Below, one piece after another: positions 443 through 38,208 of a stretch of 38,208 bases of DNA; the first letter of the stretch is position 1; each line of letters begins with the position of its first letter. The position numbers were made by a program, and so were the translations under genes. This DNA is from Enterobacteria phage T3. The DNA is taken from the sequence record NC_003298.1; one strand, written 5' to 3'. The notes under the pieces are model-generated. The model saw nothing but the letters and a program-made list of their open reading frames with translations, did not search any database and was not told the DNA's origin.

Positions 443-472
443 TTGACTTTAAGTTACCTTTAAGGCTATTAT
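443..472 (+). promoter_or_regulatory. Host sigma70 early promoter (A1-like)
   Basis: TTGACT at 443-448, 18-nt spacer, TATTAT at 467-472. Confidence 0.55.
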
Positions 473-571: not shown

Positions 572-601
572 TTGACAACGCAAGGTAACAAGTAGTAAGA
601 T
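572..601 (+). promoter_or_regulatory. Host sigma70 early promoter (A2-like)
   Basis: TTGACA at 572-577, 18-nt spacer, TAAGAT at 596-601. Confidence 0.6.
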
Positions 602-682: not shown

Positions 683-711
683 TTGACAACATGAAGTAAG
701 CACGGTACGAT
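683..711 (+). promoter_or_regulatory. Host sigma70 early promoter (A3-like)
   Basis: TTGACA at 683-688, 17-nt spacer, TACGAT at 706-711; from memory closely resembles the T7 A3 promoter. Confidence 0.7.
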
Positions 712-830
712 GTACCATATGAAACGACAGTGAGGCGGGACACTGAAAGCCGCTAGGGTCTAACGAAACCAGACCGACACGCTCTTTAACAATCTGGATA
801 ATAGCTCTTGAGTGTACCATATAAGCGAAT

Positions 831-868
831 AACTCAAGGTCGCACTGAAAGCGTGGCCTTTATGATAT
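831..868 (+). promoter_or_regulatory. RNase III-type processing hairpin (R0.3-like)
   Basis: AACTCAAGGTC ... TGGCCTTTATGAT, a member of a motif family repeated 7 times in the window. Confidence 0.7.
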
Positions 869-900
869 TCACTTAACGAACTAACATGAGGTAACACCAA

Positions 901-1359
901 ATGATTTTCACTAAAGAGCCTGCGAACGTCTTCTATGTACTGGTTTCCGCTTTCCGTTCTAACCTCTGCGATGAGGTGAATATGAGCAGACACCGCCACA
1001 TGGTAAGCACTTTACGTGCCGCACCGGGTCTTTATGGCTCCGTTGAGTCAACCGATTTGACCGGGTGCTATCGTGAGGCAATCTCAAGCGCACCAACTGA
1101 GGAAAAAACTGTTCGTGTACGCTGCAAGGACAAAGCGCAGGCACTCAATGTTGCACGCCTAGCTTGTAATGAGTGGGAGCAAGATTGCGTACTGGTATAC
1201 AAATCACAGACTCACACGGCTGGTCTGGTGTACGCTAAAGGTATCGACGGGTATAAGGCTGAACGTCTGCCGGGTAGTTTCCAAGAGGTTCCTAAAGGCG
1301 CACCGCTGCAAGGCTGCTTCACTATTGATGAGTTCGGTCGCCGCTGGCAAGTACAATAA
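901..1359 (+). CDS. 0.3: S-adenosylmethionine-degrading enzyme (SAMase / SAM lyase), anti-restriction
   Basis: 152-aa ORF, first gene after the early promoters, GAGGT SD 10 nt upstream; sequence recognised from memory as T3 gp0.3. Confidence 0.9.
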   Translation: MIFTKEPANVFYVLVSAFRSNLCDEVNMSRHRHMVSTLRAAPGLYGSVESTDLTGCYREAISSAPTEEKTVRVRCKDKAQALNVARLACNEWEQDCVLVYKSQTHTAGLVYAKGIDGYKAERLPGSFQEVPKGAPLQGCFTIDEFGRRWQVQ

Positions 1360-1363
1360 GTGT

Positions 1364-1405
1364 TAAACTCAAGGTCATGCACGATGCGTGGCCTTTATGA
1401 TTAAC
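1364..1405 (+). promoter_or_regulatory. RNase III-type processing hairpin (R0.5-like)
   Basis: AAACTCAAGGTC ... GTGGCCTTTATGATTAAC. Confidence 0.7.
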
Positions 1406-1429
1406 ATTCTCTCCATATGAGGTATTGAA

Positions 1430-2975: not shown

Positions 2976-5630
2976 ATGAACATCATCGAAAACATCGAAA
3001 AGAATGACTTCTCAGAAATCGAACTGGCTGCTATCCCGTTCAACACACTGGCTGACCACTACGGAAGCGCCTTGGCTAAAGAGCAGTTGGCTTTAGAACA
3101 TGAGTCTTATGAGCTAGGCGAGCGCCGCTTCCTCAAGATGCTTGAGCGTCAAGCGAAAGCTGGTGAGATTGCAGACAACGCAGCCGCTAAGCCGTTACTC
3201 GCTACGCTTCTCCCTAAGTTAACCACACGTATCGTCGAGTGGCTCGAAGAGTACGCATCGAAGAAAGGCCGCAAGCCTAGCGCATACGCACCGCTCCAGT
3301 TACTCAAGCCGGAGGCCTCCGCGTTTATCACCCTGAAAGTTATCCTTGCGTCACTAACCAGTACGAACATGACAACCATTCAGGCCGCTGCTGGTATGCT
3401 GGGGAAAGCCATTGAGGACGAGGCACGATTTGGGCGCATCCGTGACCTAGAAGCGAAGCACTTCAAGAAGCACGTTGAGGAACAGCTTAACAAGCGCCAC
3501 GGGCAAGTCTACAAGAAAGCATTTATGCAGGTGGTCGAGGCCGATATGATTGGTCGAGGTCTGCTTGGTGGCGAGGCGTGGTCTAGCTGGGATAAAGAAA
3601 CCACGATGCACGTAGGGATTCGCCTGATTGAAATGCTGATTGAATCCACGGGTCTGGTGGAATTACAGCGCCACAACGCAGGTAACGCAGGCTCTGACCA
3701 TGAGGCACTGCAACTGGCCCAAGAGTACGTGGACGTATTAGCGAAGCGTGCAGGCGCTCTGGCGGGTATCTCTCCGATGTTCCAGCCGTGTGTCGTACCG
3801 CCGAAACCTTGGGTAGCAATCACAGGGGGCGGCTATTGGGCTAACGGTCGCAGACCTTTGGCACTCGTTCGCACTCACTCTAAGAAGGGCTTGATGCGCT
3901 ACGAAGACGTTTACATGCCAGAAGTCTACAAGGCTGTGAACCTCGCGCAAAACACCGCATGGAAAATCAACAAGAAAGTTCTTGCTGTTGTCAATGAGAT
4001 TGTTAACTGGAAGAATTGCCCGGTAGCAGACATTCCATCGCTGGAGCGCCAAGAGTTACCGCCTAAGCCTGACGACATTGACACCAACGAGGCAGCGCTC
4101 AAGGAGTGGAAGAAAGCCGCTGCTGGTATCTATCGCTTGGACAAGGCACGAGTGTCTCGCCGTATCAGCTTAGAGTTCATGCTGGAGCAGGCCAACAAGT
4201 TCGCAAGTAAGAAAGCAATCTGGTTCCCTTACAACATGGACTGGCGCGGTCGTGTGTACGCTGTGCCGATGTTCAACCCGCAAGGCAACGACATGACGAA
4301 AGGTCTGCTGACCCTTGCTAAAGGCAAGCCAATCGGTGAGGAAGGTTTCTACTGGCTGAAAATCCACGGTGCGAACTGTGCGGGTGTTGATAAGGTTCCA
4401 TTCCCGGAGCGCATCGCGTTCATTGAGAAGCACGTAGACGACATTCTGGCTTGCGCTAAAGACCCAATCAATAACACTTGGTGGGCTGAGCAGGATTCAC
4501 CGTTCTGTTTCCTCGCGTTTTGCTTCGAGTATGCAGGCGTTACGCACCACGGTCTGAGCTACAATTGCTCTCTGCCGCTGGCGTTCGACGGGTCTTGCTC
4601 TGGTATCCAGCACTTCTCCGCGATGCTCCGCGATGAGGTAGGCGGTCGTGCGGTTAACCTGCTGCCAAGCGAAACCGTGCAGGACATTTACGGCATCGTT
4701 GCACAGAAAGTAAACGAGATTCTCAAACAGGATGCAATCAACGGCACGCCTAACGAGATGATTACCGTGACCGACAAGGACACCGGGGAAATCTCAGAGA
4801 AGCTCAAACTTGGAACCTCAACGCTGGCGCAACAGTGGCTGGCATATGGTGTAACCCGTAGCGTAACTAAACGTTCGGTCATGACGCTGGCTTACGGTTC
4901 CAAGGAGTTCGGCTTTCGTCAACAGGTATTGGATGACACCATTCAGCCTGCAATTGACAGCGGTAAGGGCTTGATGTTCACCCAACCGAACCAAGCGGCT
5001 GGCTATATGGCTAAGCTGATTTGGGATGCGGTAAGCGTGACCGTAGTTGCAGCGGTTGAGGCGATGAACTGGCTCAAATCTGCCGCTAAGCTGCTGGCTG
5101 CTGAGGTCAAGGACAAGAAGACCAAGGAGATTCTGCGCCACCGTTGCGCGGTTCACTGGACTACGCCGGACGGCTTCCCGGTCTGGCAGGAATACCGCAA
5201 GCCACTCCAGAAGCGTCTCGATATGATTTTCTTAGGGCAATTCCGTCTGCAACCGACGATTAATACCCTCAAGGATTCAGGCATTGACGCACACAAGCAG
5301 GAGTCTGGCATCGCTCCTAACTTTGTTCACTCACAGGACGGTAGCCACCTCCGCATGACAGTCGTTTATGCTCACGAGAAGTATGGCATTGAGTCCTTTG
5401 CGCTCATCCATGACAGCTTTGGGACTATCCCGGCAGACGCTGGTAAGCTCTTTAAGGCTGTGCGTGAAACGATGGTTATCACCTATGAGAACAACGATGT
5501 GCTGGCAGACTTCTACTCTCAGTTTGCCGACCAGCTACACGAGACCCAACTGGACAAGATGCCTCCGCTTCCGAAGAAAGGAAACCTGAACCTGCAAGAC
5601 ATTCTCAAGTCTGACTTTGCCTTTGCATAA
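2976..5630 (+). CDS. 1: Single-subunit DNA-dependent RNA polymerase, T3 specificity
   Basis: 884-aa ORF; specificity-loop segment KRLDMIFLGQFRLQ has Asp (codon 5220-5222) where T7 RNAP has Asn748; T7 numbering anchored by counting R746/R756/Q758 in the remembered T7 sequence. Confidence 0.97.
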   Translation: MNIIENIEKNDFSEIELAAIPFNTLADHYGSALAKEQLALEHESYELGERRFLKMLERQAKAGEIADNAAAKPLLATLLPKLTTRIVEWLEEYASKKGRKPSAYAPLQLLKPEASAFITLKVILASLTSTNMTTIQAAAGMLGKAIEDEARFGRIRDLEAKHFKKHVEEQLNKRHGQVYKKAFMQVVEADMIGRGLLGGEAWSSWDKETTMHVGIRLIEMLIESTGLVELQRHNAGNAGSDHEALQLAQEYVDVLAKRAGALAGISPMFQPCVVPPKPWVAITGGGYWANGRRPLALVRTHSKKGLMRYEDVYMPEVYKAVNLAQNTAWKINKKVLAVVNEIVNWKNCPVADIPSLERQELPPKPDDIDTNEAALKEWKKAAAGIYRLDKARVSRRISLEFMLEQANKFASKKAIWFPYNMDWRGRVYAVPMFNPQGNDMTKGLLTLAKGKPIGEEGFYWLKIHGANCAGVDKVPFPERIAFIEKHVDDILACAKDPINNTWWAEQDSPFCFLAFCFEYAGVTHHGLSYNCSLPLAFDGSCSGIQHFSAMLRDEVGGRAVNLLPSETVQDIYGIVAQKVNEILKQDAINGTPNEMITVTDKDTGEISEKLKLGTSTLAQQWLAYGVTRSVTKRSVMTLAYGSKEFGFRQQVLDDTIQPAIDSGKGLMFTQPNQAAGYMAKLIWDAVSVTVVAAVEAMNWLKSAAKLLAAEVKDKKTKEILRHRCAVHWTTPDGFPVWQEYRKPLQKRLDMIFLGQFRLQPTINTLKDSGIDAHKQESGIAPNFVHSQDGSHLRMTVVYAHEKYGIESFALIHDSFGTIPADAGKLFKAVRETMVITYENNDVLADFYSQFADQLHETQLDKMPPLPKKGNLNLQDILKSDFAFA

Positions 5631-37977: not shown

Positions 37978-38208
37978 TCTCATAGTTCAAGAACCCAAAG
38001 TACCCCCCCCATAGCCCCTCTTAAAGCCACCCAAAGCTGGCCCTACCCCTAGGGTTTAACCTTCGGTTAACCTTGGGTCTTTCCTCAAGTGGCCTATAGG
38101 ATAGCCTAAAGTGATGCCTAAAGTCAATACCTAAAGTGATGGCTGCCTATTGGAGACTTAAAGAGTGTCCTAGTGTACCAGTATGATAGTACATCTCTAT
38201 GTGTCCCT
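37978..38208. repeat. Right direct terminal repeat (231 bp), identical to 1-231
   Basis: Exact copy of 1-231. Confidence 0.95.

Follow-up and report, generated by a model that had tools for sequence, protein, structure and literature searches.

The first gene behind the early promoters of a phage genome meets the host's defences before almost any other gene can, and the question raised by the locus studied here is what its product does to them, and by what means. The stretch of DNA analysed, called the window below, is 38,208 nucleotides long. An initial annotation, made from the letters alone, had read the gene as encoding a T3-type S-adenosylmethionine (SAM)-cleaving enzyme, a lyase rather than a hydrolase, which protects incoming DNA from restriction and is no DNA mimic. 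The GenBank records of T3 and T7M are 99.9-100% identical to the entire 38,208-bp window, and an exact direct repeat of 231 bp is found at both ends (positions 1-231 repeated at 37978-38208). The repeat identifies the window as a complete, unpermuted genome, that of bacteriophage T3. The first 25 kb of the window are slightly nearer to T7M and the last 13 kb slightly nearer to the T3 record KC960671.

The interval 901-1359 is gene 0.3 of T3 (Table 1); both these coordinates and the length of 152 residues assigned at the outset appear exactly in the list of open reading frames. All 152 of 152 residues of the product are identical to those of the protein chain in PDB entries 7OCK (7OCK_L) and 8BB1 (E = 5.7e-103), which was deposited as both "SAM hydrolase" and "S-Adenosylmethionine lyase". 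The description as a T3-type SAM-cleaving enzyme therefore holds in the strictest sense, this being the sequence of the T3 protein that has been crystallised and characterised biochemically. A search of Pfam returned PF23780 (S-AdoMet_lyase) with a score of 143.2 bits (E = 5.7e-42), the cut-off being 28; residues 13-151 align with profile positions 1-132 of 133. A match to phrog_2226 was obtained with E = 6.4e-54. NCBIfam, searched with the full-length product and with the product starting at M28, yielded no family. Wherever a defining trait of the T3-like SAM lyases could be examined, gp0.3 had it. Identity, position, residues and signals of the gene are matters of observation, and set beside the known T3 SAMase (7OCK, 8BB1, PF23780) it shows zero differences: genome, sequence, position, promoters and processing sites are the same. 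The T3-like family has gene 0.3 as its type member, and the gene is already known. As the founding member of the phage SAMases, described in the 1960s, it has little discovery value; two structures have been solved, the reaction mechanism was revised in 2021 and the dual action of the protein was documented between 2021 and 2023. The structure prediction proposed in the initial annotation was carried out as a single-sequence AlphaFold2 model, which had a mean pLDDT of 46.5 and no residue at or above 70; such a prediction is redundant, since experimental structures already exist for the identical sequence. No evidence contradicting the identity of gene 0.3 was found.

Table 1. Coordinates of gene 0.3, its functional codons and the surrounding signals in the T3 window
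Feature	Position	Strand	Basis
Host sigma-70 early promoter A1, TTGACT/18-nt spacer/TATTAT	443..472	+	Consensus scan 10/12; T7M annotation
Host early promoter A2, TTGACA/18-nt spacer/TAAGAT	572..601	+	Consensus scan 10/12; T7M annotation
Host early promoter A3, TTGACA/17-nt spacer/TACGAT	683..711	+	Consensus scan 10/12; T7M annotation
RNase III stem-loop R0.3, 5' end of mature 0.3 mRNA	822..875	+	T7M annotation; fold
Shine-Dalgarno GAGGT, full-length product	888..892	+	8 nt upstream of ATG, read from sequence
Gene 0.3, SAM lyase (SAMase), 152 aa, 17.0 kDa, pI 8.2	901..1359	+	ATG-initiated ORF
Codons M1-N9, N-terminal tail touching host MetK in 8BB1	901..927	+	Published contact residues
Internal in-frame start M28, putative gp0.3B, 125 aa, 13.9 kDa (M28-Q152)	982..1359	+	T7M annotation, ATG read
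Codon E68, catalytic glutamate, equivalent to Svi3-3 E69	1102..1104	+	Present, invariant; E68Q data
Codons Q94-D95, active site	1180..1185	+	Present, invariant; E68Q/Q94A dead
Codons Q103-T104-H105, beta4-beta5 loop, hydrogen bonds to MetK	1207..1215	+	Structure description; invariant
RNase III stem-loop R0.5, 3' boundary of 0.3 mRNA	1359..1408	+	T7M annotation; fold

The signals around the gene place it at the head of the early transcript. The coordinates of A1, A2 and A3 agree with those annotated in the T7M record, which is 100% identical, and no credible gene lies between these promoters, which occupy 443-711, and position 901. Gene 0.3 is thus the first gene after the three host promoters, just as had been proposed. 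The stem-loop R0.3 folds with -17.3 kcal/mol (z = -3.63) and R0.5 with -20.2 kcal/mol (z = -5.17); for each, 0 of 200 shuffled sequences were equally stable. Rfam, applied to the whole window at gathering thresholds, returned no match, which puts these RNase III sites outside any curated family. Downstream of gene 0.3 lie genes 0.6 and 0.65, the 0.7 kinase and then the T7-type RNA polymerase at 2976. In T7M the plus-strand interval 1328-1357, inside the 3' end of gene 0.3, also bears the label of a minor "E. coli B promoter". The consensus scan showed no plus-strand site in this interval, the only match (9/12) being on the minus strand at 1350..1321.

The reaction carried out by phage SAMases, which yields 5'-methylthioadenosine (MTA) together with L-homoserine lactone, was established by DFT, TLC and NMR (eLife 2021, PMC7877911). 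The DFT and NMR work was done on Svi3-3; T3 SAMase gave the same product on TLC (PMC7877911), so that the term lyase rather than hydrolase has been published for this exact protein. Formation of MTA by T3 SAMase has also been assayed by HPLC (10.1101/2023.02.27.530186). The E68Q change lowers the activity of the T3 enzyme (PMC7877911), the E68Q/Q94A double mutant is catalytically dead and E67Q behaves as wild type (10.1101/2023.02.27.530186). Residues E67, E68, Q94 and D95, along with all of those that contact MetK, are present in the gp0.3 encoded in the window. When T3 gp0.3 was aligned with five homologues at 37-89% identity, from phages of Escherichia, Yersinia, Klebsiella and Erwinia, E68, Q94 and D95 were invariant and the non-essential E67 varied.

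A second activity is directed at the host enzyme that makes SAM. The SAM synthase MetK (MAT) is the host factor that accompanies SAMase through purification (PMC8406200). It is inhibited in vitro by SAMase, which itself stays active, and the filamentous complex of the two proteins is that of 7OCK (PMC8406200). Entry 8BB1 is a 4:4 complex at 2.8 A, with contacts from M1-N9 and from Q103, T104 and T106 (10.1101/2023.02.27.530186); those in the N-terminal tail are made by M1, I2, F3, T4, K5, A8 and N9 (10.1101/2023.02.27.530186). The two entries disagree in stoichiometry, with filaments bridged by SAMase dimers in 7OCK and a discrete 4:4 complex in 8BB1, and the filaments have been called a possible refolding artefact (10.1101/2023.02.27.530186). 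SAMase binds 25 A away from the MetK active site. In the six-sequence alignment, M1, I2, T4, E6, A8, N9, Q103, T104 and H105 are invariant down to 37% identity, and the MetK-binding residues that define the T3-like subgroup (T4, N9, Q103, T104 and H105) are all present in gp0.3. Published variants shortened by 5 or 10 residues at the N-terminus lose MetK binding and accumulate poorly. The T4A mutant has full enzyme activity with compromised MetK binding and anti-BREX function; where MetK binding was weakened, by T4A or by use of a MetK chimera, counter-defence suffered and SAMase became less stable (10.1101/2023.02.27.530186). According to the model put forward in the preprint, SAM is cleaved, its synthesis is inhibited and SAMase is in turn stabilised by MetK, the three effects acting in combination (10.1101/2023.02.27.530186).

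We conclude, with a probability of about 0.95, that gene 0.3 encodes a SAM lyase which both cleaves SAM and blocks MetK and in this way disarms SAM-dependent defences early in infection. That the enzyme is a lyase, that it binds and inhibits MetK and that gene 0.3 is needed against type I restriction-modification and BREX are published findings made with this very protein. Anti-restriction by SAM cleavage, the role first assigned to it, is correct but incomplete, for MetK is also bound and inhibited and BREX is also defeated. In the course of events that we propose, the left genome end would enter first and host RNA polymerase would start at A1, A2 and A3. RNase III would trim the transcript at R0.3 and R0.5, and gp0.3 would be the first phage protein made. 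As a lyase it splits SAM unimolecularly, giving 5'-methylthioadenosine plus L-homoserine lactone, the latter later hydrolysing spontaneously to homoserine; its N-terminal tail and beta4-beta5 loop bind MetK, whereby SAM synthesis is inhibited and SAMase stabilised. The type I enzymes (EcoKI and EcoBI) and BREX, which need SAM on unmodified DNA, would be disarmed before their target sites are exposed.

Published work agrees with the early expression initially claimed, gene 0.3 being the first gene transcribed and its product the first phage protein (PMC8406200, 10.1101/2023.02.27.530186). Entry of T7 DNA is clamped at about 850 bp, and the remainder normally depends on transcription (PMC8954989). 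In the T3 window EcoBI sites begin at 4555 and those of EcoKI at 5490, over 3 kb past gene 0.3. An entry stall at about 850 bp, combined with type I sites more than 3 kb downstream, suggests that gene 0.3 would be transcribed before any of these sites enters the cell; that entry is coupled to transcription has been documented in T7 and is assumed here for T3.

How much of the protection stems from SAM cleavage has been disputed. Phages lacking SAMase activity still overcome restriction, and on these grounds the anti-restriction premise was called "refuted" (PMC8406200). The behaviour of such phages was later explained by MetK inhibition, although the original mutant 3356 has been lost (10.1101/2023.02.27.530186). 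One might then suppose that counter-defence works mainly through MetK, by a block of SAM synthesis, and that SAM cleavage is dispensable. The historical mutant 3356, devoid of SAMase activity yet still anti-restricting, speaks for this, as does the catalytically dead E68Q/Q94A protein, which keeps MetK binding and partial anti-BREX activity (10.1101/2023.02.27.530186); furthermore, the MetK-contact residues are as strictly conserved as the catalytic ones. However, the dead mutant falls short of full activity, the catalytic residues are invariant, and the authors of the mutant study concluded that both activities are jointly required (10.1101/2023.02.27.530186). Dispensability of the cleavage reaction seems unlikely to us on this evidence. 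Because E68Q/Q94A retains partial counter-defence, an absence of SAM cleavage would not in itself refute a counter-defence role.

The same authors who questioned the anti-restriction premise stated that the enzyme serves to produce unmethylated progeny DNA, which would govern whether starved cells enter transient (pseudo)lysogeny, and this rather than escape from restriction could be the role for which gene 0.3 is mainly selected (PMC8406200); the idea is taken up in the preprint as well (10.1101/2023.02.27.530186). The site content of the genome is relevant here. In the whole window, the Dam site GATC occurs 10 times against an expectation of 140.6 +/- 11 and the Dcm site CCWGG 3 times against 74.2 +/- 8.1, an extreme depletion that points to selection against methylation. 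The T7 genome has 6 GATC and 2 CCWGG sites. Against such a main role, T3 deprived of gene 0.3 forms zero plaques on BREX+ lawns (10.1101/2023.02.27.530186), a direct and strong fitness effect, and the genomic slot is shared with Ocr, the dedicated anti-restriction protein of T7. We hold it to be quite unlikely as the principal function, the two roles not being mutually exclusive.

The sites recognised by the defence systems themselves were counted as well. Avoidance of type I sites was considered and rejected, with 4 EcoKI sites observed and 5.7 expected. The E. coli BREX site GGTAAG is present 52 times against 16.4 +/- 3.7 expected, an approximately 3-fold excess, with a strand bias of 41:11 (plus:minus); the first copy, at 1002, lies inside gene 0.3. 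In-frame GGT-AAG (Gly-Lys) codon pairs make up 37 of the 41 plus-strand sites. When the genome was shuffled so as to keep the proteins and the codon usage of each gene, 33.8 +/- 4.4 sites were expected against the 52 observed, and 0 of 300 shuffles reached as high a number. The corresponding figures for T7 are 44 observed and 31.9 +/- 4.6 expected. As T7 shares the GGTAAG excess, this is a codon-pair preference of the whole group, and an enrichment specific to T3 was rejected. Neither T3 nor T7 avoids BREX sites, which is compatible with reliance on gp0.3 as an active countermeasure.

An older hypothesis cited in the literature, based on inhibition of EcoKI in vitro, would have gp0.3 block the restriction complex by direct protein contact, in the manner of Ocr and without DNA mimicry. 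No direct interaction between SAMase and EcoKI has been demonstrated (10.1101/2023.02.27.530186), and pull-downs gave MetK, MetE and Rho with no BREX components. Any resemblance to Ocr was sought in the window by tblastn of the Ocr sequence against all six frames, the query having been checked by its full-length match to PDB 1S7Z (E = 4.6e-73). The best hit had E = 0.62, which is chance level, and lay elsewhere in the genome; there were zero matches in 901-1359. The two proteins also differ in charge: gp0.3 has a pI of 8.22 with 17 acidic (D+E) and 19 basic (K+R) residues, Ocr a pI of 4.05 with 34 and 6. On both counts, the lack of Ocr-like sequence and a basic rather than acidic composition, gp0.3 was rejected as an Ocr-type DNA mimic, in agreement with the initial annotation, and a direct block of the restriction complex is highly improbable.

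The T7M annotation also provides for a shorter product, gp0.3B, initiated in frame at M28 (Table 1). The sequence GAGGTG at 973-978 precedes the ATG at 982, and the putative protein has none of the MetK-binding N-terminal tail. Products of 17 and 14 kDa were reportedly described in a sequencing paper of 1987; among the papers available for this work, a search on in-frame initiation brought up no relevant report. Among the five other aligned homologues the M28 ATG is kept only in BA14, Leu or Glu being found in the more distant ones. Conceivably gp0.3B is made during infection and has a role of its own, either as a MetK-independent SAM lyase or as a modulator (heterodimer partner) of the full-length protein, although we would give this idea very little credence. 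If it were true, the choice of start codon would let T3 tune SAM cleavage against MetK sequestration. The phenotypes of the tail deletions, together with the poor conservation of M28, make a distinct function for gp0.3B unlikely.

A last reading, that gp0.3 is a SAM-dependent methyltransferase, as it is labelled in PHROGs (phrog_2226) and in many RefSeq and Pharokka-style annotations, has next to no chance of being right: experiments on the identical protein have shown it to be a SAM-cleaving lyase, its nine-stranded beta-barrel is not the Rossmann-type fold of methyltransferases, and Pfam searched up to E = 1 gave S-AdoMet_lyase and a chance-level match to EloA-BP1 (E = 0.18) with no methyltransferase family. 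The label is an annotation error, refuted by published biochemistry. Besides phrog_2226 it is attached to RefSeq NC_047864, NC_047867, NC_001271 and many other records. For the mining of counter-defence genes such names are misleading, as they state the opposite of what SAMase does, and the error has spread.

The SAM lyase family to which gene 0.3 belongs is already large and well populated. A homologue of gp0.3 was detected by tblastn in 511 of 50,697 phage records (about 1%), and in 449 of the 511 the match covers at least 80% of the protein. Most are podoviruses of Klebsiella, Escherichia, Salmonella, Vibrio, Erwinia and Pectobacterium, with Klebsiella the most frequent host. In records that apparently start at the left genome end, the homologues are found at about 750-1500 bp. 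Some relatives have only part of the gene: the T3/T7 hybrid 3/7 (JF906060.1, locus L007 876-983) has residues 1-36 and Klebsiella phage 515 (OR645408.1) residues 1-59. Among the related records JF906060.1, OR645408.1 and OL744217.1 (Pantoea phage F5M1C), in one the match falls on two "SAM hydrolase" features. Such copies may represent gene 0.3 in truncated, recombinant or split form. For mining the family, two separable signatures are at hand, one consisting of E68, Q94 and D95 and the other of the MetK contacts; in this small sample they are equally conserved.

Two known systems can be compared with T3 SAMase. The SAM lyases of environmental phages, Svi3-3 and Orf1 (PDB 6ZM9, 6ZMG and 6ZNB), carry out the same reaction, from SAM to MTA and homoserine lactone, and E69 of Svi3-3 is the equivalent of T3 E68 as the catalytic glutamate (PMC7877911). 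Enzymes of the Svi3-3 type are trimers with active sites at the subunit interfaces; in the published structures T3 SAMase is a nine-stranded beta-barrel, monomeric when bound to MetK and dimeric when free. Svi3-3 and Orf1 do not have the MetK-binding residues (10.1101/2023.02.27.530186). The sequence similarity between the T3 and Svi3-3 enzymes has been called "barely detectable" in the literature. In our PDB searches for 6ZM9 and 6ZMG, phmmer run at E <= 1 recovered only 7OCK and 8BB1, as did a profile of six sequences run at E <= 10; the sole other PDB match, a plant mitoribosomal protein with E = 0.64, was set aside as noise. The relation of T3 SAMase to the Svi3-3-type lyases is a functional one, sequence similarity being undetectable here. 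The other system is Ocr, the gp0.3 of T7 (PDB 1S7Z), whose gene (925-1278 in T7) occupies the same slot as T3 gene 0.3, first behind A1, A2 and A3. The two proteins have the same targets, type I restriction-modification and BREX, and unrelated sequences: Ocr binds the defence enzymes through DNA mimicry, whereas T3 gp0.3 removes their cofactor.
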